This document shows positions 1-63,314 of a stretch of 64,000 bases of DNA, piece by piece. The DNA comes from Podarcis liolepis. Taxonomy: Eukaryota. The notes under the pieces were generated by a model that was not told the origin of the DNA, searched no databases, and saw only the letters and a list, made by a program, of their open reading frames with translations. Numbering within the stretch: the stretch's first letter is position 1; every line of letters starts with the position of its first letter. Location of the stretch: the NCBI GenBank assembly GCA_965112155.1, contig OZ218098.1; one strand, written 5' to 3'. The translations under genes and the position numbers were made by a program.

Positions 1-1529
1 ACCAAACAGGCAGTAGAAGTAGTGCCTGATATGGCCTGATAAGATGGTACCTGCAGGAGGCCCTGCCCTGCAGAGCACAATGGATGATTGGATATAAGGG
101 AAGGAGATGATATTTTTGTCCTGGTCCTCAGCTGTATAGGGCTTTGTGCATCAGTACCAGCACCTTGTAACTAGCCGAGTAGTTAATTGGCAGCCAGAGC
201 TGCAGCACCCATGTACTTTTGGAATAGGGTTCTTAGCCTTCCTGAAACAAGCTATTTGACTATTGTGGGCTTTCATGAGTGCAATGTAAAGTTTGCTGTC
301 AAACTGAGCGTCTCAAGAATTGAGACACTAAGAACATTGTCAGAGCACTGAGAAACATAAATATTTTTGGTGACATTTTTAGATTTCCTCTTCAATTCCG
401 TTTCAAATGAAGTGATTCTAAATGAAGTTATTGAGTGTTTGTGAGGTTATGTTGAACAATTTGTGTGGCACTGCAAATCATTTTGTTCGGGTTTTTTTGC
501 CTAAGCATATTCACATTATTTGTGACTGTAGAGGCCAGAAATGAAATCTGCAATTCTGTGAAGTTCATAGGTTAAAGAAAGGGCCTCTGGACCTCCAGAA
601 TTACAGGCTGCATATTGTTCCAATGAGTTCTTAAATGTTTAATGTGTTTATTTTTTTAGTAACTTTGGATTCAGTAATGAATATTAAAAGAAGTTGGGGC
701 AGTGGGAGATTATAGATGAGGTAAAACAGTTGGGAAATAACAGTTATCATGCAGTTCATAGGGGGTGCTGAGTTTCAGGACTAGATCAGTAACTTCTGGT
801 TCGTTAAGGTCAGCGATCTAGAGATAGTGATTGCTGAGATTGAGTTTAGGGGAGAAGAAAGATGCTCATGTAGTCCTCAACCTGGCTGTCACAGTGGTGG
901 GAAGGAGATGCTTTCCCCTCTACTATACTTTTGGAGAGAGTGGGGGTGGGGAAGTTGAGTTTACAGGATCCATATATTCATGGTATGCATCTCTGAACCC
1001 TAATTCCATCTCTGGATAGTTTTAAGCTGTTAATTTTTCTGCTGAACTGGGCAGGGAGTTATTAATCAGAATTGGAAGAAGCACCCCCCCCCCTTCTCCA
1101 CTGATATGATTTAATTTTAATTGTGATTTTGATATAGTTATATTAATTCTTGTGGTTTTAATATATCTGTAAACTGGGGTCTACACATGAAGGATGGCAT
1201 AGAAATTAATCAGATAAATCTTGTGCTTCCTGGAGGGCAAGAAGCATGCTCAGTCTTCTTCAGGCTATTTTTGTGTATATGTGTGAGAGAGTATAAAGTG
1301 AATATGCAGAAACCATTGCCTTCGGTTTTGTTACCAAAATGATAGTCAAAGGCTATCAGGTTTGCTATTAGAAGTAATATAAGCAGTTGACCGAATTGGT
1401 GTCTAGAGAGTAGCAATGCATTATTGTTTTTACTGGAATTTCTGAGTGCATGCAGAATTGCCCTCAAAAATAAGGTTAATCATCAACTAATCAGCCTCTT
1501 ACTAACACAAGTTCCTCTTGTAATTTCAG

Positions 1530-1634
1530 AAAAAAGCCAAAGGACAGCAGCTGTTTGAACAGATCATGTACCATCTGGACCTCATTGAAAATGACTATTT
1601 TGGATTACGATTCATGGATTCTGCACAAGTAGCA
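1530..1634 (+). CDS. EPB41L5: EPB41L5 coding exon (FERM N-lobe), first exon in window
   Basis: TACTAAC branch point 1500-1506, ttcag|...|gtgagt; [35 protein letters not shown], a band 4.1-family FERM sequence. Confidence 0.96.
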
Positions 1635-2225
1635 GTGAGTGGCATGGGGTTTTTTTCTTCTTCTTACAGTAGTAAAGTTAATTAAATCATACCAGGCCAA
1701 ACACAAGATTTGTGCAAGTGTTAAGTTGTTCTTGGTACAACAAAATTTATAGATGAGTTTAAGAAATTGTCCTGAACTTCAGTATAAAATCAGTTTCCCT
1801 TTTTCATGTCCTCTGTCCTGGTTTTGATAGATAAAATTATGGATCAGAGAGTTGTTGGTTCTAATTCAAATTTCAAAAATGAGAATATGTTTAATTTCCC
1901 CCCCTTTTAATTTGTATTGAAGTAAATCAAACAAATCAAGACAATAAAATAATAGAAGTTCATGACTTCTGTTTCTTTCATAGTATGAAAAGTATTTTTT
2001 TAGTGCCTTGGAGTATTTGTTGCATGTAATTCATGTTACACACATTTTTATTGGATCATAGTTTAAAGGTCCTGGTTTAAAGGCCGCTTTGGACAGAACC
2101 ATTAGAAAGGAGGGTCAGAGGGGGGTAAAAACCCATTGGGCTTTCTGTGGAGGTGTGTGTATGACCTCTCAGTGCCCCAGACCTGACCCATAAAATCTTA
2201 ATGCAGCATCATAGAAACTTTAAGG

Positions 2226-2451
2226 CAGGGGTGGGGAAACTCTGCCCCTTCAGGCCATGCTTTTAAAACCACACTTATCTGCTGGTCAACTGACATCACT
2301 CTGATGGGGGAGAAATAAGTTGATTGGCGAGGGGGTTAATTTTGGTGTTGCCTTCAAAGCTCAGTGTCACCTACCACCACTATGATTTGGCCTTCCAGGG
2401 GTGGGGAGATAAGGATCTGGTCCACAAGGCAGAAAAGGATCCCCACCCCTG
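2226..2451. mobile_element. non-autonomous hAT-type MITE
   Basis: TIR CAGGGGTGGGGA...TCCCCACCCCTG, perfect 8-bp TSD CTTTAAGG. Confidence 0.85.
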
Positions 2452-2483
2452 CTTTAAGGTCATCTGAGAAAAACTATCATTCC

Positions 2484-3143
2484 TGTTACGGAAAAATCTG
2501 GGTGCGGGGCTACTCTGCCACCCAGCTCGTCGGACTAGGTCCGCGGGTCCCTGCAGAAGAAAATGAGCTCAGCCGGACAGGAGCAAACTGCAGAAGATCC
2601 AAGTTTATTGCGCAACAGGTTCAAGGCGAGATTGAACAGCGAGAAAGGGGTGACATGAACTTTTGAAATTTCCCTCCATGTCCCAGAATACAGTGCAAAA
2701 TACATCCCAGTTACATCATGAATACATTAAGAAGAGGTTGGGTTACACAGATTACATCACGAATACATTAGGAAGAGGTTGGGTTACACCGGATTAACAT
2801 ATGGAGGAGGGAGGGGGGAATATGCAGAGCTGGAGATATGCGCAGATAAGCACATCCTGAGAAGACAATGGTCCATGTATGCATAGTCTGTCACCTGGCA
2901 TCGCCCGGAGGAAGGGCTTGGCAGAGCGATTTGACCGGATTAGGGTCTTGACACCTTGCTTGAGGGATTATGGAGGACAGGGGAGGTGTCATGGGGTCCT
3001 AGAGAAATTGAGCAAATTGGCACGTTGATTTTCTATGAATTTTATAGATTTTAGTCCCTTTTGACATTGACAATTGGAAATAAATGGATATAGTGTAGCG
3101 AAGAAGGAGGTGAAGAAGACATGCCCCCCCCCCTTCCGTATCA
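2484..3143 (-). mobile_element. solo LTR (ERV/LTR retroelement)
   Basis: TGTTACGGAA...TTCCGTATCA termini, 4-bp TSD TTCC, minus-strand AATAAA 2604-2609, internal ~38-bp direct repeat (about 2711-2789). Confidence 0.8.
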
Positions 3144-6100
3144 TTCCAAATGGCAGATCTGTCTTCAGTGCAGTTGCAGTTCCGTGTGTTCTGAGAATGC
3201 AGGGCTCTAGTAATCCCATCTTCCAGGATTGTTAGAATTCTTTTTTGGTGTTCTGGTCAGGCACAAAACCTTTCTGGTTTTTGTGTGTGTTGCTGGACTG
3301 TTTCTACCCAGTCTTAAATTCATGATTCAGTCAAAAGGCATATGCACCAAGCACACACAATTTAGTCATGATCTTGGTTAATTAAGTGTGTCTGTATATA
3401 TTACATAGAATTTCACAACTGAGATTATTTTGGTAGTTCTTCATTGCATTTCCACCACCTCACATGCCAGTGCAATGAAAAACTCTTCTGACCTTAATCA
3501 TATTTTCTTGTGACTTGTTCTTATAGCCTAGGGTTCCATGAGCCTCACTTGATACTGTATGATTTACTTGCTTTAGGCAATTTATATTTGTTTGCATTCA
3601 GCTGGTCATTGTGCACTTGGAAGAGTGCATTGCTCAGTCTAATGCAATTGCTCCAGCTTTCTGTTTATTGTGATGCAGTGCTAATGTTTGTCAGGTATAT
3701 AAAAATGGTGTTAAAGACCATGTCTTTTTTATTTTAATGAGCTCTGCCTTTTATACAAATAGTTGAATCTTGAATGATGTTGATGTAGTACTGGCTAAAT
3801 CTGTGAGTATAATTTGGGAGTTGCCTTTACAATTCAAGAGACTTTTTTATTCCAGTGTCTGTTGCTTCCCCCTCTCATTGTATTTTTGGTTAACATTGAG
3901 TTAGAAGGGACCCTAAACAACACCAATGCAAATAATTCACCTTAGTGCTGTATATTCAACCTTAAACCTACTGCCCAGGAAATCATCAAAAATCATAAAA
4001 ATCATCCCAGGAGGAAAAAGGCTTTTGCATGTATTCATTTTGTAATTACAGCAGGAGGTTCATGGCTTGCAGGGATGGCTAGCAGCCCAATAGTAGGGAG
4101 ATCTGTGAGTAGCTTGGCTCAGACCAAAAAAGTTGCAGGACACTTTCTCAGATTGTAAATTTTTCAGTAGGGAGTATCCTCTGGTTTAATCTTTTGACCC
4201 ATTACTCTTACCATAACCTTGCCTTGTTTCGTGAAGTGTGTATTTCTGCAGGATTAGAGTTTGTGCCTGACCCTGCTGAATTTGACAGCTGCGGTAGGAA
4301 AAGAATATATTCCAAGCATTGTGTTGCAGTGTACTTGAAGTAAAGTATAGTTACCAAGCGCAACTGCAACATGAGATCAGGTCTCAGTGTCTCCCAGGCT
4401 TTGTTCTGTAAAAGTAATTCCCTCCCCCTCTTCTGTGTGCCAGTCAAGCTGAACTCTTGGAGATGGCGCTGGTGTTAGGAACTGAGTTGAACTAAGTGGT
4501 GTCGGTGCCTGTCTCTGGTCTGTTAACTGCCTTTCTGTGGAATGTGGAGGAGGTGAAAGAAAACAGATTGGAGATGAAGCAAACTTATACTTTGCCCTAC
4601 AGTCTGGGAACATCTTTCTTTTTTTTCTTTTTTCTCTTTTCTTTTCTTCCTTCCCTGTCCCTGTTGTTTGTGTATACGGCACCATAGCACTTGTAATACT
4701 CTACTTTGGTGGATTTGTTTTCTTATCAAAGGAAATGTATGTTGGATGGGTGCAGACAACTGATGGAAAACTATCCAAAGAAGGCATGTTTATGGTATAA
4801 CTTCCTATAATTGATTGATTGCATTGAATGAAATAATCTTATTTCGTTCCAAAGCAGTAGGACAGTTCCATGAAAATATCAACCAGCAGGCTCTTTTTTA
4901 TCTTCCTATATAGCTAGCATGTTATGTATCTTTTTAAAGATAGTTTTCCAAAGTTTTATTACCTGGCAACAGTTCTACACATGAGTGAAACATCCAGAAG
5001 CAAGGCATGCAGAGTGATTCAGAATTTCTCTTAATTTTTTTTACTAACTTTTAGCTAACTACTTTTCAATTCATTTAACAACCCGTTATTTTATTGGTAG
5101 TTTCGCTTTTGCTTTTGATACCTGAGAATAAATGGTATGTTAGGAATAAATATTAGTGAGGTCTTGTTTTGTAGGTTGCGTGTGAGTGAGTGACTTGTCA
5201 CAAGCAATGTTGGTCACATTAAGCTGGTCACAGAAAACGTTTTCCCCAAAGGGATAAATAAACAGTATGAGAAGTTTGACACTTGCCCATGAAACATTAG
5301 CTGTTTTTGTATGTGGGTGCAGATGGGGAAAATTGATTCACACTTTAAGAGAATACAGTTATCTAAGTTACAGATATATTCTTGAAGTTGCAAAACTCTT
5401 GTGTTGGTCAAATACTTTAAAACACAGTTCTAAAAAGGCAAATGTTAACTATTTGGCATGCTTCTTGGTTTTTGGTTTTTGTAGGGAAGATCAGTCCAGT
5501 TCAACCACAAATAGTTTAATGTTATTTGGAGTTCAAATAATATTAGTTAACACACAAATTATTATGTAAACAAGCTTACAAATATAATGGTGGTAATTAT
5601 GGAATTACCTAACAACAACAGGAACAACAACAGCTGTCATTTAATTATGATTCCACTACTGCTACTCCGTTGGTATAGTTCAGGAACAGTTTAATCATGT
5701 GGTCTTTGTTGGTTTAGATGAATTTTGTCAAGTTTCCCAAATGCTTAGAAATTTGATGGTGTAAGATGGGTGTATGTTGTTTCATACTGTTTGTAATGTA
5801 TTTTAAATTGCAATCCTGGGGCTTTGGTATATTATTAGTATTAGTATCATCAACATTTGCTGCAGGTGGGATTAGAGTTGCTATAGCTGCTGTCATTGTG
5901 AACATCCTGTGTTTAGAGGTGAGCCCATATTTATCACAGGGCTGCATGTGCCATTTTGGGTCAGTCTCAGTCTGGGGGAGTGAGGATTAGGTGATGTCAA
6001 GTTGTACTAGCATCAGATCTGACAACCATCTCCATTATAAGATGCCTGCTGGCACACTATTGACTACAGCATAGGGTGGGGAGCCACGTAATGTATTCTG

Positions 6101-6892
6101 AATGATAGCAGTGGTATTTAAAGGAAAGCCTGAGGCCACAGGTGGTAACTCAACAGTATTATACTTAGAATGGTATCATTACCTATAAGGATGTTATCAC
6201 CTAGGAAAAATACTTGGCAGATTTAAGGAAATACCCAACCCGTAGTTAACATATTTTGTGAACTTAGCTTCTACATCCTTATGTTCTGAACTTAATGTGA
6301 TCTGCAAGTTTTTATCTTGTACTGCTTGCTTCATTCCAGCTGCTGAGCTCTCTGAGAGGAACTTGTATAAACAATTCATGCTAATGCTTGTGTCAGCACT
6401 TGAAAGAGACAATGCATTCCACAATACTAGTTTTTAAGCGTAACTGTGAGAAAGTTTGTGTGCTTGAATAGAAAGGATGCACTTTTAGGTGAAAAGTTAC
6501 ATTGGCATGCCTTTTCCTTTCTTAGATGGGAGATATAATCTTTTTCATATCTCTTTGGTAAGATGGCAGCCTGAAACGCATTGAAACATATGTTAGAATT
6601 CTGACAATCCCAGCAGCTTTCTGGCTCTGTGACTTGCAAAGATACATTTGTGCTGCAAATTGCAGATCATGATTTCAGCGCTCGAGAAATTATTAACTTG
6701 CCTCTTGAAACGTATTCTAGCAAGCTGTTACAGTCAATTAACTGTAGGTCAGGAACACTGAATGTGTTGCTCTTAAAATGCTTTATACTGCTTAGAACTA
6801 TTTTGGCTTGTTCTGTTCTATGAATTTATAATTTGCATACTATATTTTTATGTTGAAAACATAAAGTCTATAATTATTAATTTTTCTTTCAG

Positions 6893-6935
6893 CACTGGTT
6901 GGACAACACAAAGAGTATTAAAAAACAAGTTAAAA
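6893..6935 (+). CDS. EPB41L5: EPB41L5 coding exon
   Basis: ttcag|...|gtaagt, 43 nt, HWLDNTKSIKKQVK, phase 0/1. Confidence 0.95.
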
Positions 6936-7870
6936 GTAAGTGAAGTTTGTGTTTTTAAAAATCTGATTTACTTGAGTAGCGACGAAGACTTTGTTTCCCC
7001 AAAATATACCATGGCAGTATGAAACTGTTCAAAGAACAATGTTGTAATGCCAAGTTTCTGGCATTACAACTGATCTTTGACTGACATTACATTTACTACA
7101 TGATGTATTGAAAGCAAATTCAGTACAGGGCAAAAAGAAAAAAGGGGCTCCAATTGTTTAAAGATTCTGCAGCACATTTCTTTTTGCACTTTCTGCCTTA
7201 AGAGTATTACTAAAATGGATTTGGTGGACTATATTTTAGTAATCTTTGCTTTGCTGACCTATTGTGATGTGTATTTGTATCTTTTCTGTGACTTATATAC
7301 ATTGACTTTTTTAAAAGGAACTGTTCTAGTAATGTAAATCAAAAGGGGGAAGAAACTTTGAAGATCTGGTATTACAGGTGACCTGAATCAGAGGGTGTTG
7401 AGGAGGTGCATGAGTAACATCATATTCCTGGTTTAGAATTTCTCTCATTGGAAGGAAATGAGGTGTGGAGTCTGCTGCAATAAAATGTTTAGCTAGCTAT
7501 CTTCCTATGACACAAACTAACAACAGGAGGTACTCCCCAAAACTTAAGACTGCCTGGGCAGAGTTTATAAGGATTTGATTGGGGTACAAAGCTAAGATTG
7601 ATGGATTTCTCAGTTCATGGAATAGAGCCTTGTAATATTGGGATTAACCTAGATTTGTCTGTTCTTCTTGGCAAGACAAATCAACTTAATGTAATGAGAC
7701 TGAGTTGGCTTCTGGTATATAAAACTACTACTGTTTGTTTAGCATTCTCTTTTTTGCTAGTGTGCTCAGTATTACAGAAGGGATTCCCACCCCCTTTGAA
7801 TTCTGATTAGTGAATATATTTACAAAATAATATTCTTGCTGTCAGAAACCTAATATATTCACTTTTATAG

Positions 7871-50353: not shown

Positions 50354-50682
50354 GCAATGCTTCCAAAACATTTTCTCATGGACCACTTGAAGGTTGCTGA
50401 GAGTCTTGGTAGACTGATTAAGGATTTTTGTGCTGTTGTAGCAACTGTAATTTGCTAGGCTGGCTGCAGTATGATTTTTAATTGTATTTTTATTGTTCCT
50501 TTTGTTTTCTGTATATTGTATTCCAATTCATATGCCATAGATTTCAAATTGTAATTCAGTAAGAATACAATATAAGGCATAAAAAACAATTAAAAATCAA
50601 TATGACTATTGATGTTCCATCTTCAACTATAAATCCAGAGCCATGTTGCAGACCACCATGGGCCACAATTTGAGCAGCATTG
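50354..50682. mobile_element. degenerate hAT non-autonomous element
   Basis: CAATGCTTCCAAA...TTTGAGCAGCATTG with CTCTAAAG/CTCTATAT flanks. Confidence 0.55.
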
Positions 50683-50813
50683 CTCTATATAAATAGAATA
50701 ATTAACTGTAGGGACAAGCAGCAGGTTTACTGGACGCTTTTTCTGCATTCACAATGAAGCTGCTTAATCCAAGCATGCAGGCCCAAACCAATTCATTGAA
50801 AATAGCAGCATGG

Positions 50814-50819
50814 TTTATT
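50814..50819 (-). terminator. candidate polyadenylation signal of the kelch gene
   Basis: AATAAA on the minus strand ~155 nt after the stop. Confidence 0.4.
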
Positions 50820-50974
50820 TCCCTGAGTGAGTGGCTCCATGAAGTGGTAACGCTGTCATTCTAAAATACTTAGATACTTCATATTCACATGACATTTTGG
50901 TTTCATGACAAAATGGGTAAAATACAACAGGGTGTATTTTTGTTCTCACTCCTTAGTATGTGTATATGCGTCAT

Positions 50975-51671
50975 TTAAATTTTGTCTAGCTCCATTTGCC
51001 AAAATGAAATTGAAGAGGAACTTGACAAAGGTTTACCTCCAATAAGCAGCAGCACAGCAGAAGACTCACTAATGTCCATGGAGGCAGAAGACTCACAAAT
51101 GTCCACAGAGGCAGGTGTCAGATCAATGAAACTTGCATTTTCCTCTGTAAAGTCCTGTTCTCTTGGTAGGTTTAGGTAGGATGTTCTCTCTCTCTCGGAC
51201 AATATGCATGCTTTCTCATTTGCACTCAGTTCTGAACTCGAAGTGGTTTGGCGTGAGCAAAATCCTGGCTCCTCCCGAGACAGGTAAAAGGTTTTCATTT
51301 CAATTTCAGTGCTACCGTCGTTGCTGAATGTTTGGTATGAGGGCTCCTGGTGAATAGACTCACAGAAACAGGCATGCTGCTTAGAGATGGCCAGTAGCTT
51401 TGAACAACCCATTTCTTTTTGATGCAAATAGCTGAGTGACTTCCTTGAAGAACCAGCAATCCCTTGGAAGCCATATCCAATCCCCAACATGCAGTGAAAA
51501 GCTTTGGATGAAGGTTCTGTTGTCCTAGCCAGTTGTTTCCACATCTGAGATGGAAAATGGTATTTCCACAGAATACTGCTTGGCCTAGTATTAGAAATTC
51601 CTCCGCCAAAGAGCAGCATGGAATCTTCAAATATTAAAGCTGAGTGTCCCACCACTTTAGGAGGCCCGTGA
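50975..51671 (-). CDS. kelch-repeat protein, terminal coding exon 7
   Basis: ttag|SHGPPKVVGHSALIFEDSMLLFGGG...VLLLIGGKPLSSSSSISFWQMELDKI*; total CDS 1368 nt = 455 aa. Confidence 0.9.
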
Positions 51672-52002
51672 CTAAACACAAGCACAACAGAGAACAAGGA
51701 ACACAGATCAGTAATGTTTATGCTGATGAAAATGAGGTAGGATTTTAGTTTCTGTTTGGTCAGCACTATACAGCACCATTAATTACATAAGATAGAGGGA
51801 ACTGCACTGAATGAAGGTATCTGAATGTATAATGCTCCCTAAATTGGCTGTTACGGATGATTATGCAATAATTCTTGGTCAGCCCAAGTTGAATATACTT
51901 TCTTTTAAACAGTACAAACATTTGTGAAACTGCCCTAATTTTTAAAAAGTTACCTCCTCAAAAAGTCTCGGCCTGATTCTGACAGAAATGTGTGGCTCAG
52001 TA

Positions 52003-52358
52003 CAGTGGTGCCTCGCAAGACGAAGTTAATTCGTTCCACGAGTTTTGTCGTCTTGCGATTTTTTTCGTCTTGCGAAGCACGGTGTCAGGAAAGTTTTGGA
52101 AAAGCTTCAAAAATCACCAAAGTCTTTAAAAACCTCAAAAAAGGCTACCACACCGCGTTCTATGAGTTGCTCCTCGAAGTCAAGTCGCAACTGTATTAAC
52201 GGTGTTAAGAAAAAGGAAACAAACTTGCAAGACGTTTCCGTCTTGCGAAGCAAGCCCATAGGGAAAATCATCTTGCGAAGCAGCTCAAAAAACAAAAAAG
52301 CCTTTCGTCTAGCGAGTTTTTTTGTCTTGCGAGGCATTCGTCTTGCGAGGTACCACTG
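52003..52358. mobile_element. Tc1/mariner (Tigger-like) MITE
   Basis: TA TSD; TIR CAGTGGT(G/A)CCTCGCAAGACGAA; internal CGTCTTGCGA repeats. Confidence 0.92.
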
Positions 52359-52572
52359 TATATAAATGCAATCCTCCCTTATCACAGCATTGTAATTTTG
52401 TATATCAGGGCTTGACTTCCCACGGCAGCCTCTTCCAGAACAAGAGACCTTGCCCAAGAAATGCATTAGAAATGCCTTCTGCTTTTCAACAGCGTTCTTT
52501 GGATCACAGAGAATGTGACTAGAATGATGCGAACATGTGCATTATTAAAGCATGAATTCAACAGCTTATAAG

Positions 52573-52712
52573 CAGAGGTGGGGAACTTTTGACCCTCTGG
52601 ATGTTGCTAGACTACGACTCCCACCATCCCCAATGAACTGGACACACTAGATGGGGCTGATGGGGGTTGGGAGACCCACAACATCCAGAGCACCACACAT
52701 TCCCTACCCCAC
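52573..52712. mobile_element. degenerate palindromic hAT MITE
   Basis: CAGAGGTGGGGAAC..CTCTGGATGTTG / CAACATCCAGAG..TTCCCTACCCC. Confidence 0.6.
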
Positions 52713-52912
52713 ATTAGAAAGGGAACCAACTTGCTGTTCCACAAAGTACAAATACAGCTTAATCCACATCCCTCAGAGGCAGCCATCGTAGCTGCCTAGT
52801 TCCCCGAGACACACATATTTTTAACCTTTCTAATTTTGGGTAGTTTTATCTACTCCATTCTCAAACTACAGCTTGCTGAAAATGCTGGTTAATAGCTCTC
52901 AAAAGATTTTAC

Positions 52913-53093
52913 CTCGTTCTGATACTAGACCAGTTGGCAGCCATGAAATCCCACTTCCAGAAGTCTTTTTGTTCACTCAGACCCATCAGCCCTCCAAACA
53001 AGTACATGTTGTTGCCATGAACCACAGCTGAGTGGCCATGTCGAGGGCCTGGGCTACCACCGTAAGATACAGCTGGTGTCCACTGTTTTTCAT
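52913..53093 (-). CDS. kelch-repeat protein, coding exon 6
   Basis: ccag|NEKQWTPAVSYGGSPGPRHGHSAVVHGNNMYLFGGLMGLSEQKDFWKWDFMAANWSSIRT|gtaaaa. Confidence 0.92.
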
Positions 53094-54257
53094 CTGGAGG
53101 AAGAAGATTACAGTCCATTTCTGTTTCAACATAGGGGCAGGGAACCTTTTCCAACATCTACATTCCCTTCTGTGGCTTGCATGCCAGTGGGGTAGGACCA
53201 GAGACAAAAATCAACAGATGTGACTAAAGGCTGTGCACAGTTCCCCAGATCCAAATCATTTCAGGTGGTGAGCTGATGTTTAATAAGGGTTCGCAAAAAC
53301 CTAACTAAACATACGGTTGGGAGGGGAGCAGGGGAAGAAGTTGTGTCTTGTCCTCTTTCTCAGTGGGGAGCAGGAGGGTTTAATCCTGCAGAGTACTCCT
53401 TCACAAGTGCCTTTACCACAGGAATACAAAGTTAGATGTTTCTACATATCCACCATCCTCCTTCAAGGCATTCAAATGACATCCTGTTGCTGTTACACAT
53501 TCCAGACAGGCATAAGCATTTGAGGAGGGCATGCATGGAGCAGGGCTCTTAGAGGTGTGGCCTGGGAAGAGTCTAGAGGACCAGGTAAAGAGGCTTGAAA
53601 GGTCATATTTGGTCCATAAGCTTGAAGTTCCCCCATCCCTGGTTTAATTCAATACCCAGATAAACAGCTACAGAATTGCATTTTCATTCTCATTTTAGAT
53701 GTTTCAAAAGGGTTTTGTATCATAACCACCAGCCACTTCAGTAGGGATGGGGAGCAGGATCCAAAATAGCCCTACCCACTGCTGGCTACTTTGACAGAAC
53801 TGTCCACCTGCCAGTCACATGACATCAGGGGATTGAGTTTCAAAGGAAGAACCCAAAGTACACTCTTAAATTCAAGCTGTGGCTGCAAAGAATCAAAGGA
53901 AATTCTAGCTGTTTTCTTTCTAACTAATTGGGTGGTTGCTAAATTTAAAACACACACACACACACACACACAAAAATACCACTTTGACAGGTGGGTAGGG
54001 TGACAGAAAAAGTGCAAAATTCTACCAGCAGCTGGAAAGGAACAATTGGAAGTGTACATAGAGCGTACTACCAATTTTTCATTTTCAAGATGGCCGTGCA
54101 GATTTACCTGTCCCATGGCTGATGCCGTATGACACCAAGTGATGGCTACAATTTGGGCCAAATCACACCACAGCCCAAGGAGGATGCCCAATAAGCCTAA
54201 TAAGGACACAAGCCAGAGGTTCCTCACATGCCTACAGAGAAAGCTCAACTTACTTAC

Positions 54258-54378
54258 TTAGACATAAAGTCCAGAATTCTTGAGAAGCACCCTTAAGGTC
54301 AACGTATCCGCCATACATGTACATGATGCCTTTGTAGACGACTGCACTGTGGCCCTTCCGATTAACTGGAGCTGTTCC
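54258..54378 (-). CDS. kelch-repeat protein, coding exon 5
   Basis: gcag|GTAPVNRKGHSAVVYKGIMYMYGGYVDLKGASQEFWTLCL|gtaagt. Confidence 0.9.
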
Positions 54379-54532
54379 CTGCGGAGAGGATAGTAATGAA
54401 ACAACTACCATTAACAGTTGTTGCCATCACATCTATCCAAGCAGACCCCCCCCCCTTACTACTTCCACTTAAAAATGCATTCACACTGGCCTTGTAAAAC
54501 ACCAGTACCTGACACCTTTATGAACATCAGTA

Positions 54533-54763
54533 CAGTGGTACCTCAGGTTACAGATGCTTCAGGTTACAGACGCTTCAGGTTACAGCCTCCGCTAACCCAG
54601 AAATAGTACCTCAGGTTAAGAACTTTGCTTCAGGATGAGAACAGAAATCGCGCAGCAGCAGCGGGAGGCCCCATTAGCTAAAGTGGTGCTTCAGGTTAAG
54701 AACAGTTTCAGGTTAAGAACAGACCTCCAGAACAAATTACGTTCTTAACCCGAGGTACCACTG
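54533..54763. mobile_element. Tc1/mariner (Tigger-like) MITE
   Basis: TA-CAGTGGTACCTCAGGTTA...TAACCCGAGGTACCACTG. Confidence 0.88.
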
Positions 54764-55994
54764 AGCATTTCTGTTCATACAACCACTTGATGGGTATGGG
54801 ACGGGCTTGTTCTCAGTTGAAGGAGTAGAGAAAAGCAATGAACAGCTGTGAGAGTTACTGATATTCCACTGCACTGCAAAAGCAAGCATGGTGGTGCCTT
54901 TGGAAGGGGCATGCTATCCAAACTTTTCTAACCAGGAAGGCAGAGTTAGTTACATGGTCAATCTACTCCAGAATCACCTACTACTATAAAAATTAGGTAA
55001 CAGAAAATTCAAGTCCAGAATAAGCAGTAGGAGCACTTCTAATAATAAATAGCTAGTGCAATGAAGTACAAGAAATGTAGTGTGTCCATGCAGTGTTTCC
55101 ACCAGAAGAAACCACCCTAACTATAGAGAAGGGCATCATCTAGGAAAATAAACCCCTCTCAGAAAAGGATGGATTAGCAAATAGTTGACGGGGGGGGGGC
55201 CTGCAGGTTAAAACTGGCAATTACATCATAGTTGAGGCTGTGCCTCAGATAATTCACCAGAAGCAACGACCCTCAGAAACAGTTGCATGTTTCCTTCAGG
55301 TTTGTTTGAATAGTGAGTCTTCAAAGTGCTTTCCCCCTGAAAAAAGTGATAATACAGCACTGTTTGCAAAGTTGGTTAGGACCAAGTGTGTCTGATGGAG
55401 GATGAAAGCAGCCTGGAAGTTCTTTACAACATAGAAATAAAGCTCTGGTACAGTTTCACAGGAGAAAAAGTTGGAAAGGCAAGGCTGCCTCTGTTCACCC
55501 TTTGACTAAGCCCCTACTACTGCTGCTGCTTCGGAGGGAAGGTAGTTCAAAACTTGAAGGAACAAGTGCAGGCTGCCCCCACCACACAAGACCTTGATCC
55601 TTGATGTTAAGAGCTGCCTGAACCTAAGCTCTTGGTTGTGTGTGTGCTTGTCTTCATGAAGTGTGGCAGCCTACACTTCCCTAGTGCCCCATGCTTCCAA
55701 ATGGTATGCCTGGTTTTCACCAAAATATTCTTTAGTACCTATATACATGAAGAAACCCTGGTATTTATTAATGAAAAATTATATAGCTAACCTTTAACAT
55801 TATCTGGGCAGCTCACAATCTATAACTAATAAACCATAAGTAATTTGGTATAGAGAGCAGTTATAAATGTGCTACATATTATAAACAAAGAAATACTCAT
55901 GGATTGTGTCCAACTGTGTTGCTCAGCTGGCAGTAAAGTCAGTAGAATGGGGAAGGAAGCCATTTTCAGCTGTCCCCCGTCCCCCGCCCTAGTA

Positions 55995-56199
55995 CAGTGG
56001 TACCTTGGGTTAAGAACTTAATTCATTCTGGAGGTCTGTTCTTAACCTGAAACTGTTCTTAACCTGAGGTACCACTTTAGCTAATGGGGCCTGCCGCCGC
56101 GCCGCTGGAGCATTATTTCTGTTCTCATCCTGAAGCAAAGTTCTTAACCCGAGGTACTATTTCTGGGTTAGCGGAGTCTGAAGCGTCGAGCTACCACTG
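55995..56199. mobile_element. same MITE family as 54533-54763, opposite orientation
   Basis: TA TSD; CCACTTTAGCTAATGGGGCCT and ATTTCTGTTCTCATCCTGAAGCAAAGTTCTTAACC are reverse complements of the first copy. Confidence 0.88.
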
Positions 56200-56534
56200 T
56201 AATATGCTCCAGTGTGCTGGGGGACCCTTCAAAGCAGATTTTGAAGGGTGCCAGAGGCTGCTGGGGATGAAAGCTGCTGGAAATTGCTTCCCTCCAAAAT
56301 ATAAGATCCAAAAATATACATGCTGTATAGATTATTTAAGAATATAGAAGAAATGAGTATCCCTCCCCTTACAGTGAAAAAGTGATACCAACAGCATAAA
56401 ATTACTCTGCTGCTGCATTTCCCCGGATGAACTCTGGAACAGTTTTCAGAACATATTCCTAAGCAAGCTGTTGGATCAACAAAGCAACATGTTTCATGTA
56501 TGATTCACACATTTCTGTTTTCCAAATTTCTTAC

Positions 56535-56581
56535 TTCACTCTCCCCTGCTGTGAGTTGGCGCTCCATCCATTTAGCTGAAT
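56535..56581 (-). CDS. kelch-repeat protein, coding exon 4
   Basis: gcag|DSAKWMERQLTAGESE|gtaaga; phase 1/0 fits neighbours. Confidence 0.8.
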
Positions 56582-57193
56582 CTGCAGTTTCAATAAAATA
56601 TCAGTTACAATACTAACCACAAGAGGGTACTCCTGCTCTATTTGTAATGTCATGCAAGGCCCATTGAACTTTGGAGACGGGAACCAAGAAAGTTGTTCAG
56701 TTCTCCTTAACAGCAACTAAGGTAGCTTTCATCTGTCATAAATATTGCCCAAAAGTAGCATCTCAACAGTGTTTGTCAGAAGTGACACTGGCAAAAAATA
56801 AGAAGTACCCATGGCTCAGTGTTTTGCATATTTAATGCTACAGGTTCAATCCTAGGTATATTCAGGGGTTTTTTTTATTAAAATAAAAATCTGATATCAT
56901 GGCAAAAAGAGACTTAGGGGAGCCACTTTGAACCAGGATAGACAATATTGGATGGGACATACCACTGATCAGACTCAGCTTCCTGTGGTCAAAAAATACC
57001 ACCATATTTATTGTCCCCAATCCAAAAAGATGATGGATGTACTGTTGTTATGATGTTATAGTATTGGCTGGTAAGGCGTTGTGTCCCCACCCACCATCCT
57101 TGGGAATATGCAGAAGATCTCATCTTGCTTTCTCATGAGGCCTGGACCTAAGAAATACACTATAGCAAACATACACTATAGCATACACTATAG

Positions 57194-57680
57194 CAGTGTT
57201 TCCCAACCGGTGTTCCGCGGCACACTAGTGTGCCGTGAGACACCGGCTGGTGTGCCGTGGGAGGAAGGCGGGCGAGTCGGGCGGTGAGAGGCGGCGGCGG
57301 CGAGGATCCGCGTCGAGCCGGGGGCGGCTCCGCGGTGGTGGTGCCGAGCGGCGGGGCAGCGCGCACAAAAGGGAGGAGCGCGAGACAGCGGAGGAGGAGG
57401 AGGCCGGCATGTCCGGGCAGCAGCAGCAACAACAGCAGCAGCAACTCCCGCCGCCGCCCCCTCCTCCGCCCGCTATCGCCGCCGCCGCCTCAGCTGCCCT
57501 CGCTCTGCTGCCTCCTCCCTCCCCGGCAAGGGGGAGGGAAAAAACTTTCGCTTTTGTGCGTCCCTCCCGGCGTGACGCTGCGCGCTGACGTCACGGGGCG
57601 GGGCTTTAATGGTGGTGTGCCGCGAGATTTTTTTCCGGCTAACAGGTGTGCCGTTGCCCAAAAACGTTTGGGAAACACTG
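57194..57680. mobile_element. hAT-type non-autonomous element carrying a CpG-island-like cargo
   Basis: TIR CAGTGTTTCCCAA, perfect 8-bp TSD CACTATAG, subterminal GTGTGCCG repeats at both ends. Confidence 0.92.
57586..57603. promoter_or_regulatory. CRE (TGACGTCA) plus adjacent GC box inside the hAT cargo
   Basis: TGACGTCA 57586-57593, GGGGCGGGG 57595-57603, extra TGACG half-site at 57573. Confidence 0.5.
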
Positions 57681-58329
57681 CACTATAGCAAAAGAGCAGA
57701 CCCCTGGTTCTCAGCCACAAGCCAACTATAACTCTTCTGTAATGTTTGAAAGGTATTAGTATGCCACTAAATTGGCTTGAGGCTTCTGGCTGCAATTCAT
57801 AGTTCCCAGGAACTGAATCCCTGCCAACTATACAGAAAAGACATGATCAACAAATGGAAGAATGCTAGGACTGTCCTGGCCCTAATACTCAGTGTTCTGT
57901 CACAAATATATAGCTGAATTACTAAATTTGTGTTTAGTGAAACATTGATTCCAACACAAAGGTACTTAAGTGGATTTCTCAACCTCCTCCTACTCCTGTA
58001 CTTTTGCTGGGTAGTTTTGCTGTGAATAATCCTATAGTGAATGAGACACGGGGGAAGCTTCTTGTTAAATAGCGTGGTGTTTCTTTTTCTATAGATACGT
58101 TTACCTGAAATGTTAAAACATTCTATAGTTCAAATGGATTGACTATTGATCTTACTGGAACTTGACTGGAAATCTGATGCTTCAAGCAAGCTCAGGCAGA
58201 TATAATGGCAAACAAGGCATGCCAAAAGATTCTCACCTGTCTACTCCACCCAAACAGGCTGCCCTACCTACGTATTTATCAAATCTATATGCAATCCTGT
58301 TTAAAGATGTTGCTTGTCTAGTTCCATAC

Positions 58330-58408
58330 CAGTGTCATACATCCAAAGAGGATTCTTTCTCAGTGTGAAAGCAGAATCCACCATTCCACCAAAGATATAG
58401 AGGATACC
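58330..58408 (-). CDS. kelch-repeat protein, coding exon 3
   Basis: ttcag|GILYIFGGMVDSAFTLRKNPLWMYDT|gtatgg. Confidence 0.88.
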
Positions 58409-60333
58409 CTGAAAGTAAAATAATGATTTTCTTGTAAAACATACTTGTATCTTCCAAAGTCAAATGCAATCAAGTGAATTCATTGTAAATTTCAAATCAC
58501 AATCTAAGCTGCACTCCAGCAACAGACATATGGAAGGAGTAATGGTCCCATGCACCATGCTCTACACATACATACACCCACCCCCCCGCTCATGTTTCAT
58601 GGAGAGAGGCGCAGAATGGGCTGTGCCAACTTTTGTGATTGCAAGCACACTTAAATATTGAACACACAGAATTAAATCCAAAAGACTTGCTTACTAAGGC
58701 AGATCCCTATAGCCACTTCAGGTGGATAGTACTGTGGTCACAAACATTTATTACAATATTTGTTGACAATGAACCTTTCTGCAAGGTGTTAAAGCCTACA
58801 GCCGGAGTGGAGAACCCTTTTCAGCCCGAGGCCACATTCCCTTGTGAGCAGCTTTTGGGGACCATGTGCCAGTGGTGATGAGAGGGCAAAGCCAGTGGGG
58901 CAATGGATTTGACAGGAGGGCTACATTCCTGTAATGCAAAATGCCAGGCAAGCAAGAGGAATTATCACAGGGAAAAGAAAGACAGGGCACGTAGCAGTGC
59001 CAGTGAGGGGAGAGGCCTAAGAGAGCTTAAGTGCCCGATAGAGTTGCCCAAATGTGAGTTTCCTCATGCTTGGACTGTAGGAATGACAAAAATATTTTAA
59101 ATGCACTATTGTGGGGGTATCTAGAACGTCTACTGAACAAATAATAATTTTGAGGCACATCTTTTAAGGGGGCTGTGCAAATTGATTTGTGGGACATATG
59201 CTTGGGGCTGATTTGAAATGTTATGTTACCTCCACAGAGGCTGCAGAAACGCATCAGGTGTAACATTTAAAATGGGTAGTGTCAGCAGTTACAAAGATAA
59301 CTGAGGAACATGGCAGATGCTGCACGTACTAAGCTGACACACAAGATAAGATGTTTTTAAAGTGTATGCTTGCCAGCCAGAGCACCACATAGATGTGCTT
59401 TTTGACAGCTTTCGCATAGGCCAGCTGTAAGGTTTCTAATATTTAAATCAGCCCTAGTAGGTAAAAATAAATTGAATAACGTTATTGAAAGGAATGTCCT
59501 TCTACAGCTGACTGACTGTTTCATTGTCATTTCCTCTCAACGAAACAACCTTGTCACTAACAGAGAACAATATGCCAAAAAAAACACCTGCAAAAAAACC
59601 ATGGTACTCTGTTCCTTATTTCACCTAAAAGGAAAACAGCAAACCAAATGCTTGTTTCACCTTATTTCACCTAAAAGGAGAACAGCAAACTATCATCTTA
59701 CTCCAAGAATAACGCTACCCACTCACTAATTTAGTTAAAGAAAAACAACAACCATACATATGTTTGCAAGTGTGTGTTTGTTCAATCACACTTTGTATTT
59801 ATAGGTTTATGTCTCAAAAATGTGATCAGTGAAAGGAGGCCCACAAAGAACACAGTAGCTGAACCTCTCTAGGAAAGAAGGGCTATTCCCTCCCCTTCTA
59901 GAGTTCTTTCTGCTAACAACTGTCACCTGACCTATAGGAATACAAGTGTTACACATACCCAGCAGTTTCTCGGGGGGGGGGGGCTGGATATTTTTGCTGC
60001 TGCAGGAAGAAGAGAATAGAGATTCTTACCCTGAAGCAGAAGTCTGAGCCTACCAGGAAACTAAACTACAGAACAGCACCAGCCACACAGACTATAATGG
60101 GGAAATGACAGGTAGAATCTAGACACATATAAAAAACGCTGTGGAAATGCTTTTTTAAGAAGTGTTTTGAAAAATATATTGAATTTGCCATAAGCTCACC
60201 ATCTAGTGTCACATTTGTATAATGCACTTAAAATACAATTAAAACATTATATTTGCAGCTGTATAGCTGAGTCCACAGTAGCAAAGAAGAACTAGTTATT
60301 GTATTATACAGGACCAAATCAATTCAAACTTGC

Positions 60334-60413
60334 CTGATAATCCACCATTGTGTGCTCTTCCAGTTCTTCAGGGCCATCTTCTGAGTTTTCCAGTCTCTCC
60401 CATTCATTATTCT
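60334..60413 (-). CDS. kelch-repeat protein, coding exon 2 (GC donor)
   Basis: ctag|ENNEWERLENSEDGPEELEEHTMVDYQ|gcaagt. Confidence 0.82.
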
Positions 60414-61820
60414 CTAGAAATTGTTTTGATTAAGATTGTCAAGGTGTGAAAGGGACCCATGAAATCACCTAACCTGTCTTTCTCCCAACATGGAGCAGTT
60501 ACTTATATCAAGCTCTGTTAAAATTCCACAGAGATTAAGCAAGTAAAACATGGACTGTCATCCTCTGTGATGCATTGAAGTGGATACCTGTGGGTCCCTG
60601 TGTATTATAAAACAAGGCAAGAGCTTCAGCTCTATGGACAAGTTTCACAATGGCCAGTCTGCAGCGCTGGAAAATATTGGCTCCATCTGCTTGCACTAGT
60701 CTCCAACAAGACTTGTCTGTTAAAAAGGATGCATGTTATTGGACAAATGCAGTCTCGGTTTGCATTTTATTGAGCCTCTCTCAAACAGTTGCTGGCCATA
60801 GACAAAACACATAGCTGAGGCAGAAAATGCACATCAGAAATATGGGCTTCCACCAAAAACAGTCACCACTTACCAAGAGTTTCATCCTTTCCCTCCATAA
60901 CCATAGTTTAACTTGCTTAGCATGAGAATGCAGTGAGACTTCCTGCCCCTCCAGTGTCAGCTGATGTAGAACAGCAGCAAGGAAATGCATGTATTTTACT
61001 ATATGTTATAGAGGGAGCGTGGACTGGACATATGACATTTTGGCAGCAGCCCGATTTTTGATAATGTGTAATTAAACCCTGTATTTATCCCATGGCCTAG
61101 TACCCTGTGACTGGCCTATGATTAATATCCACAGATACACAGAACACAACAATGTTCTTTAGAATCCATTTTGGATAGTTGCCACTGAGAATTAAACCCC
61201 ACCTCCAAATTCACAAACTTTCAGATATAAACTCAGCATTCTCCTAGTTTCTGAAATGGTAATGACATAAAAGCTGTTGCGCTGGATCACACAAGAGAAA
61301 CAGCAATGGTTTCTGAACAGGTATGTTCACTTTTCCTTATCAACACAGGAAACCAAGGGTATGGTTTACCAGAAAAACAAAAACATTTGCCTGCAAGTGC
61401 CACAGGTAGTCATCATAATACTTCTACATTATTTTTATTTTCATATGTGGAAAAGGTTTGCATTAGCTTTCCGTAAAGGTGGGCTTGAATGAAGAATCCA
61501 CATAACAATCATTATTCTTATTGTTATTAGGGTGATAAAGTTTATTCATTAATCTTACTTTGCTTACTTGGATTGGGGAGGGGCAGGAATCTGCTATAGA
61601 AAGAATCTGGTGGAAATTTCATCAGGTTGTCAAGAAAAACAGGTTTGTGTGAATACAGCATGTAGATTTGGTTTAGTCAGTGGCATAATGATACATGTAA
61701 CTACAATATATGACATCTGAAGGCAGCTCTTTATAGCAAAGTTTTTAACGTTTGATGTTTTACTGTGTTTTTATAATTTGTTGGAGCAACCCAGTCAGTT
61801 GGGTAGGATACAAATAAAAA

Positions 61821-61850
<30 letters not shown>
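61821..61850. repeat. (GAT)n microsatellite just inside kelch intron 1
   Basis: direct inspection. Confidence 0.95.
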
Positions 61851-61852
<2 letters not shown>

Positions 61853-61871
61853 AGTGAACAGGAAAACTTAC

Positions 61872-62034
61872 CTATCTTGTATCGCCAGAAATCATTCAAG
61901 GTAGTATTTTGCCGTCCACCATAAACATAAAGGAACCCCCTGCAGATGCAGCAGGCATGCTTGAATCGGTCACATGGAGAAGATTTGCTCTGTGGTACTG
62001 GCTTCCATGAATACTCTGCTGTTTTTCTTTTCAT
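61872..62034 (-). CDS. kelch-repeat protein, coding exon 1
   Basis: ATG at 62034 (in-frame TAG upstream at 62088); MKRKTAEYSWKPVPQSKSSPCDRFKHACCICRGFLYVYGGRQNTTLNDFWRYKI|gtaagt; acceptor at 62091-62092 implies an upstream non-coding exon. Confidence 0.88.
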
Positions 62035-63314
62035 CCCTGGGTTAGCTGGAAGGCATACCCATGTCAAGAAGATTTCTCCACAGTCCTAACCTGAATACAG
62101 GAAGAGAAAGTCAAGAAAACAAAGATGGTTGATGGAACATACTAGAATGCTAGAACTTCCAGAAATGACCAAAATGTTGCTAGGTTCAAACTGGTTATCT
62201 AAGGGTTTTATGATATAAGTTAACTCATGCACCATGATGTACTGTGAGTCTCAGATCTGTAGACTTACACTGGCTTTACTGAAACTTCTCTCATTGATTA
62301 AATAAAATAAAACAACTCTGTCCAGGAGCCAAACATTAAAGACAGTTCTACAGCAATGGAAACAATTCTTATTTGAGCCTGCTGAAGTAGAGAAGTTACT
62401 ACAGAGAGACGTGCCTCCACAGATTTATTAATGTTTTGATGATGATTCTATTATTTGCAACAAAAGTACAAACTCAAAGAGGAAAATGGGTAATGTGACA
62501 AGAACAGCAGCACTCCAAAGTTTGTTAAATTTTATTATAGTTTATTGTGGTAACAAAAAAAAATATTTTATTTTTCAGAAAGAAAAAGAAATAGAGGAGA
62601 TTTTGACAGTGAAAGTTCAAAGTAGTAATCAAGAAATGTGTGAAAGGGGACTCAAAGAGGGAACAGAATTAAGAAATATTGAACAGACAAGGTGCAAGGA
62701 CAAGACAGTCCTAACCATATCTAACTCAGAAGTAAGTCCAACTGAATCAAATGGGGCTTACTTCCAGGTAAGCTGGGTCAGGACTGTATCCTAGATTAGG
62801 AGAGAAAGCACTTTGACTTAGTAGAGACAGAGCAGATAATTGAAGAAATATATAGTCAAGAAATAAATAGTTTGAATTCATCAAGAATTACTGGTACTAC
62901 TTTTCTGATTTGAAAAACAAACAAAACCTTACACTGTTTGCTCAAAGGATAATACACTGCACAAAATCATCCTGTAAAACCAGTTTTTGGCTTCCATTTT
63001 GGCAAAGCAACAGTGGCCAAGAATGTTCTAATCACATAAACCTTTGGATAATTTCAGGTTCTTTACTATAATAATTAGTCACTGTATGCTGGATCTCTTA
63101 CCATCCCCTGGGCACTGCAAGTTTGGCTATATACCTAGTCAAATGTGTTAACATGTGGTTAGGTTTGCTGCTCAAATTGGAATTGAAACTTCTAGTTAGT
63201 AGTCAAACTCTCTAGACATGCCATTTAACATGTCACCATTTTTAATGTGGCATCCATCCACAGTGGATTTCTTATGTTAGCATACACAAATAATCAGTAA
63301 GCATACTTTCCTTT

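Follow-up and report, generated by a model that had tools for sequence, protein, structure and literature searches.

A conserved kelch-only gene with a predicted split propeller blade in Podarcis liolepis, and its possible role in membrane sorting

The 64,000-nucleotide stretch of Podarcis liolepis DNA considered here (contig OZ218098.1 of assembly GCA_965112155.1; hereafter the window) carries on its minus strand, between positions 50,975 and 62,034, a gene whose product consists of kelch repeats, and the question that it raises is what such a protein is and what it might do. A sequence-only reading, made without database searches, had put it down as an intact, unnamed, five-bladed kelch gene, perhaps non-mammalian or lost in some lineage, and had guessed at a substrate-receptor role of the KLHDC type. 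The lizard gene is real and is the single-copy orthologue of the fish gene si:dkey-3d4.3/klhdc3l, its identity and orthology being near certain. As to its role, the tentative view developed below, to which we would give a probability of about 0.4, is that the protein is an adaptor outside the E3 ubiquitin ligases that couples a bound target to the membrane-sorting machinery.

The seven exons were recovered on the minus strand where the sequence-only reading implied them, and its account of consistent phases and an open frame was confirmed. Joined, they give 1368 nt with no internal stop, encoding 455 amino acids and a stop codon; the intron phases are 1, 0, 1, 0, 1 and 2, the acceptors are AG throughout, and the donors are GT in five introns and GC at intron 2. 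The protein is colinear with the Lacerta agilis RefSeq protein P0001 and identical to it at 444 of 455 residues with a single 5-residue gap, so that the exon model is beyond chance. Of eight single frames scanned, namely those of every exon but the fourth plus two off-frame controls, six returned kelch matches. The parts of the gene are as follows.

62035..62090, minus strand: probable 5' untranslated piece of exon 1, judged from an acceptor at 62090 and an upstream in-frame TAG
61872..62034, minus strand: coding exon 1, with the ATG at 62034; encodes blade 1 and the N-terminal strand that closes blade 6
60334..60413, minus strand: coding exon 2, followed by the GC-AG intron; colinear with orthologues
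58330..58408, minus strand: coding exon 3; strands B and C of blade 2
56535..56581, minus strand: coding exon 4 (47 nt), placed by exon joining and colinearity with Lacerta
54258..54378, minus strand: coding exon 5; blade 3, with R130, K131, H133, D150 and G153
52913..53093, minus strand: coding exon 6; blade 4, RNA-confirmed donor
50975..51671, minus strand: coding exon 7; blade 5, split blade 6 and stop, RNA-confirmed acceptor
50400..50974, minus strand: 3' untranslated region with a provisional end, minus-strand RNA coverage and AATAAA at 50819 and 50494

RNA mapping of four lizard runs was confined to positions 50400-53900, which hold the exon 6-7 junction and the 3' end. Contigs in runs X1 and X5 span that junction (52913 to 51671, CT..AC), seven raw reads of run X23 cross it, placed 2-3 nt off beside a single-nucleotide polymorphism, and the junction is thus spliced in lizard RNA. 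The exon reads of X23 have their first mate on the plus strand and are therefore consistent with minus-strand RNA. Depth is low, 2-8x in X23 and near zero in X21, which has almost no coverage over the mapped interval. The remaining five junctions are predicted from colinearity with orthologues, and there is probably an additional non-coding exon beyond the window, 5' of exon 1.

Full-length relatives were listed from lizards, snakes, tuatara, turtles, crocodilians, birds, amphibians, lungfish, ray-finned fish, sharks and the platypus. The description of the gene as unnamed does not hold, as fish records are called si:dkey-3d4.3 or klhdc3l; other relatives carry many arbitrary '-like' names in RefSeq, and across the databases the family is misnamed as LZTR1, KLHDC3, HCFC2, gefF, Tea1/3 and others. 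An exhaustive HMMER search added many longer proteins, and those looked up came from lamprey, tunicate, amphioxus, hemichordate, echinoderms, annelid, molluscs, tick, ostracod, insects and cnidarians. The 30 HMMER representatives looked up comprised 21 named members outside the jawed vertebrates, one fish and eight without names, with no fly or nematode among them. Invertebrate members have profile scores of about 198-296 bits, against 132 for human LZTR1, 116 for KLHDC3 and 68 for KLHDC2. The family spans cnidarians, protostomes and deuterostomes up to the platypus, and is as old as the cnidarian-bilaterian split. Shark and ray orthologues (P0083, P0090, P0093, P0097) have a C-terminal extension, CE(T/M)FLKC, seen in none of the bony vertebrates, which may be a lipidation site.

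A tree of the kelch part (IQ-TREE, LG+C20, bootstrap not fully settled) took in 37 family rows, five other kelch proteins and seven lizard paralogues, the last being approximate exon joins, some of them partial, on long branches. The 37 rows form one clade (99/97), within which the jawed vertebrates group together (99/99) and the subgroups track phyla; the clade includes the records named si:dkey-3d4.3/klhdc3l, and its sister group is left open. The fish protein shares clade, length and layout with the lizard protein, and no essential difference was found between them. The symbol klhdc3l implies a kinship with KLHDC3 that the data do not support: the true lizard KLHDC3 lies at G000:C3:106.2 Mb and the true LZTR1 at G000:C6:31.87 Mb, and both fall outside the family clade. 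The tree likewise rejects KLHDC10 as an orthologue (KLHDC1 and KLHDC2 are absent from it), and also RABEPK, represented by a partial, long-branched sequence; the names of the lizard paralogues other than KLHDC3 and LZTR1 are our own presumptive assignments. In keeping with the earlier supposition, the gene is in the tree a one-to-one orthologue of none of LZTR1, KLHDC3, KLHDC4, KLHDC10, RABEPK, HCFC1 and FBXO42. The evidence for a single copy is exon 6, which has one match across the genome. Elsewhere in that genome, two near-identical loci that are presumably RABEPK-like, L046 (C21:38.96 Mb) and L058 (C20:18.32 Mb), resemble each other introns included and are a recent or an assembly duplicate, and L052 (C1:29.91 Mb) is a further multi-exon kelch gene to which no name was assigned. 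In the literature outside supplements and subscription papers we found no study of the function of the family, its split blade, its motifs, its EF-hand form or its loss; 'klhdc3l' appears only as a neighbour of a quantitative trait locus and 'dkey-3d4.3' is unmentioned. The protein is known as a database entry with a fish gene symbol.

AlphaFold2 was applied to the Lacerta agilis orthologue with 127 sequences (mean predicted local distance difference test score, pLDDT, 77.9), superseding an earlier model from 28 sequences (pLDDT 52). The model is a closed six-bladed propeller in which blades 1-5 are contiguous and blade 6 is split: its strand A lies at residues 284-288, its strands B and C at the extreme C-terminus (pLDDT 85-90) and its strand D at the N-terminus as a velcro strand. 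The five blades originally counted are therefore six by prediction, the sixth being interrupted by an insert of about 140 residues with a pLDDT of 32-54 over most of its length.

51476..51505, minus strand: blade 6 strand A, residues 280-289, in the AlphaFold2 model
51056..51475, minus strand: predicted disordered insert in blade 6, residues 290-429
50978..51055, minus strand: blade 6 strands B-C, LLLIGGKP...FWQ, from the AlphaFold2 model and alignment
51320..51337, minus strand: YQTFSN, of YxxΦ type, kept chiefly in amniotes
51287..51304, minus strand: IEMKTF, residues 347-352, a pattern shared by 69 of the 72 jawed-vertebrate members and by 20 of the 55 others

The layout of five contiguous blades, insert and C-terminal hhhhGG..W strands is kept in the orthologue group. 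Between residue 285 and the last GG there are 88-168 residues in 72 jawed vertebrates and 149-814 in 55 other members. Those 55 rows were picked partly for visible C-terminal GG..W strands, rows without them being dropped (e.g. P0141, P0153, P0154, P0163, P0171, P0196, P0221, P0235, P0244), and the count is therefore no gauge of how universal the split blade is. Mean identity to Lacerta is 18% in the insert against 54% in the propeller. Within the insert, a 27-bp tandem duplication (window 51057-51114, 2.1 copies, 90%) encodes a 9-residue repeat; it is present in Lacerta agilis and absent from the other squamates aligned.

In vertebrate, amphioxus and insect members the Pfam scan returned kelch families and nothing else, neither BTB nor F-box, as the sequence-only reading had it when it likened the gene to LZTR1 and KLHDC. 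LZTR1 is a CUL3 adaptor for RIT1, MRAS and KRAS, the three partners to which it is bound in its PDB entries; KLHDC1/2/3/10 are receptors for C-terminal degrons in CUL2 and CUL5 RING ligases. LZTR1 has the top sequence score with all profiles (131.6 bits with A1, 181.9 with A4) and the top structural match (Z 36.9, root-mean-square deviation 2.8 over 303 aligned residues, 23% identity), effectively tied with KLHDC3 (36.4) and KLHDC2 (35.9), and its blade 1 reads R-S-K-H, the commonest form in the family outside the jawed vertebrates. Unlike LZTR1, the lizard protein has its blade 6 divided by a long insert and lacks BTB-BACK, which was not found after the propeller; the orthologues stop after blade 6. 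KLHDC2/3/10 share with the family six kelch blades and an N-terminal velcro strand, as predicted by the Lacerta model (Z 34.5-36.4), and a basic pocket, but the two features that define KLHDC1/2/3/10 in PMC11568203, a BC-box and an R/F-S-R carboxylate anchor, were not found in it. Scanning the 127 sequences with the BC-box consensus (taken from PMC12035522) gave no BC-box after blade 6; the sole recurring match, in 38 of the 127, lies in the loop and strand C of predicted blade 6, overlapping a propeller strand and leaving about 15 residues to the C-terminus. At the register of the triad, judged by sequence, members have K/R-G then H/Y (K-G-H in the lizard) and no blade fits. The guess at a KLHDC-like receptor is weakened by these two results.

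Two other kelch proteins bear comparison. RABEPK is, like the lizard protein, kelch-only, outside the E3 ligases and tied to membrane traffic, but it lies outside the family clade; we know of no split blade in it. FBXO42 (Z 32.7), an E3 receptor, likewise has a long disordered loop set into its propeller, of about 280 residues according to PMC13233325, but that loop joins strands 5B and 5C and the protein has an F-box, as against a loop between 6A and 6B and no F-box in the lizard. The predicted top face of the lizard propeller carries polar residues common to jawed vertebrates and other members (R23, K25, R41, E/Q73, R130, K/R131, D150, R181, H/Y182), together with a K/R after the last GG that is likewise conserved in both groups, and the basic pocket residues are conserved from insects to lizards.

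The insert was searched for short linear patterns, 21 of which were compared with shuffles, the top types being retested with doublet-preserving shuffles and five decoy patterns. In the 55 inserts from outside the jawed vertebrates, ΦxNxx[FY] occurs in 35 (doublet shuffle mean 13.7, maximum 23), [FY]xNPx[FY] in nine (0.1), [ILVM]E[ML]xx[FLM] in 20 (mean 4.5, maximum 9) and the acidic dileucine [DE]xxxL[LI] in 34 (mean 20.3, maximum 27), with no enrichment of the decoys. Among the 72 jawed vertebrates the corresponding counts, with shuffle values in brackets, are 69 for the IEMxxF type (1.5), 30 for ΦxNxx[FY] (4.8) and 15 for YxxΦxN (1.4); the strict dileucine is not enriched among them. BC-box, LIR, RVxF, LxxIxE, clathrin-box, SxIP, PxIxIT, NPF, WxxF, DPF, FxDxF and Cys-pair patterns all stayed within the shuffle maximum. 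Identity to the lizard is about 10% in this region, yet the motifs are found again in arthropods, molluscs, echinoderms and chordates. Motifs of such types are read by PTB domains and AP adaptors. The FERM domain of SNX17 recognises NxxY/F in its cargo (PMC11589680), and retrieval of zDHHC2 is driven by dileucine and NP signals (PMC5711357).

Five representatives start with MG and carry an EF-hand module of about 220 residues before the propeller: those from Nematostella, Stylophora and Glandiceps and two that are unnamed. The closest PDB chain to this module is calaxin (E 7e-19), followed by NCS, KChIP and hippocalcin proteins, with NCS scores near that of calaxin, and its structural neighbours in the Atlas are calcineurin-B-like proteins, GCAP and KChIP. 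The Stylophora form belongs to a 32-member cluster, and the full 831-residue coral protein is encoded by many Logan contigs, which makes an artefactual gene-model fusion unlikely; some isoforms lack the module, and it was not found in the other stored family members. The EF-hand form would probably be myristoylated and bind Ca2+, and the module appears to have belonged to the ancestral form and to be absent from vertebrates. No upstream EF-hand exon was found in the lizard: between window position 55,000 and a point shortly beyond the first RALB exons, no match was better than E 3.

How might these parts work together? In the mechanism that we infer throughout, the top-face pocket (R23, K25, R41, R130, K/R131, D150, R181, H182, K437) would bind an acidic surface, most likely that of a small GTPase, a target suggested by the kinship with LZTR1, or else an acidic peptide. 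By kelch topology the insert would leave between strands A and B, on the opposite face, and there would recruit partners through IEMxxF and, in many relatives, also through ΦxNxx[FY]/FxNPxY and the acidic dileucine, the partners being FERM/PTB and AP adaptors that read motifs of these types. The ancestral protein would in addition have been brought to membranes in a Ca2+-dependent way by an NCS/calaxin-like module, probably myristoylated, which vertebrates lack. Several observations weigh against this proposal. The patterns were picked by eye from the same sequences, 21 were tried, and related sequences inherit motifs together; plain YxxΦ shows no enrichment; IEMxxF matches no known motif that we could name; cnidarian members mostly lack the enriched motifs; and the lizard insert has IEMKTF and YQTFSN, with neither ΦxNxx[FY] nor dileucine. 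Such sorting signals are as a rule carried by membrane proteins, and no membrane anchor is evident in the vertebrate protein. Nor does the tree settle LZTR1 as sister to the family.

The protein could instead serve a ubiquitin ligase as substrate receptor, as KLHDC3 and LZTR1 do, reaching a cullin or other E3 through a partner or a non-canonical motif such as IEMKTF. Its close structural matches are nearly all E3 receptors, FBXO42 offers a precedent for the disordered loop, and K/R131 at the -2 register apparently corresponds, judged from the sequence, to R240 of the KLHDC3 RSR anchor as given in PMC11568203; with neither BTB nor F-box by Pfam, the BC-box match buried in predicted blade 6 and K-G-H in place of the triad, we consider this unlikely, though a serious contender. 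A plain effector or sequestering protein for a small GTPase, comparable to RABEPK or to an LZTR1 without its BTB domains, would need the insert only as a spacer or phospho-regulatory segment with motifs unrelated to sorting. RABEPK is such a kelch-only effector, of Rab9 (PMC12035522), profile scores place LZTR1 nearest to the family and the insert is weakly conserved; against this reading, which we hold to be doubtful, the insert motifs exceed shuffles and decoys across several phyla. Calaxin as best PDB chain, with outer-arm dynein kelch domains and a flagellar protein among the matches, could point to a ciliary or sperm-flagellar scaffold, ancestrally Ca2+-regulated and lost in therians with a change in sperm or cilia, but the dynein domains score 98 bits against 182 for LZTR1, NCS proteins come close to calaxin and vertebrates lack the module, leaving such a role improbable. 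That the gene is decaying or misassembled and now without function, as its low RNA depth might suggest, is largely refuted by the intact frame, 98% identical to that of Lacerta, by full-length orthologues in all major jawed-vertebrate groups but therians and, weakly (p about 0.02-0.05), by six of ten listed coding differences being silent in RNA of a related lizard. The sorting adaptor can also be carried further, into a rather speculative form: a myristoylated Ca2+ sensor fused to an LZTR1-like propeller might pass a RAS-family GTPase to endocytic sorting adaptors and not to a cullin, from cnidarians to the platypus, until its loss in the therian ancestor, where TMEM185B, which we take to be a retrogene in the therian EPB41L5-RALB slot, may have taken over the promoter.

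The earlier suggestion of a gene either non-mammalian or lost in a lineage survives in its second half: the platypus has the gene, and no therian appears among the matches listed. With the platypus protein as query, scores fall from the platypus itself (999 and 676 bits) to the alligator (453), and no marsupial or placental name occurs in the best 120 of 353 matches, six of those 120 being unnamed Logan proteins; a second ranked search agrees, with no therian among the best 120 of 289. These are ranked protein lists (lengths 230-858 residues) and no mammalian genome was searched, which tempers the point; the lists support a loss on the therian stem without proving it, and we regard loss after the split from monotremes as likely. 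The family would offer a dated gene loss, and its apparent absence from mice and humans makes the gene invisible to mammal-centred kelch catalogues. By profile score it is the nearest listed relative of LZTR1, but it lacks any cullin adaptor and so could show what such a propeller does without ubiquitination, and it is accessible in zebrafish, Xenopus and chick.

The gene lies tail-to-tail with a plus-strand FERM_C gene that has the C-terminus ...LLTTEL and ends at about 45088. The convergent arrangement first described therefore stands, and the name EPB41L5 is our assumption from the C-terminus and synteny. Outside the window lie RALB (plus strand, about 51 kb past the kelch ATG) and an inhibin beta B gene. 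If the human order is, as we presume, EPB41L5-TMEM185B-RALB-INHBB, the kelch gene occupies the slot held by human TMEM185B. A TMEM185 gene adjoining the lizard kelch gene was ruled out, the TMEM185-family matches sitting on C21 and C11. About 6 kb upstream of the kelch ATG, just outside the window (L002 about 4000-4700), a CpG-rich patch with a plausible minus-strand donor may be the promoter and non-coding first exon.

Several repeats were also noted. Between the kelch gene and RALB lies an 850-residue Ty1/copia-type retrotransposon frame with gag, protease and integrase (L003:2931-5480, minus strand; G000:C1 about 90.10 Mb), and the interval between the RALB CpG island and the first RALB coding exon holds several hundred-bp units in a GC-rich tandem array, with a 200-N stretch after it (L006 about 1000-4600). 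Intron 3 holds a GC-rich element with GCA/CCG repeats (window 57195-57690), of which a near-identical copy occurs in the RALB region (L007 about 6350-6980). Short transposon-like elements with CAGTGGTACCTC-type ends lie in kelch introns at 52000-52360, 54530-54760 and 55990-56200, the first of them with very high multi-locus read depth.

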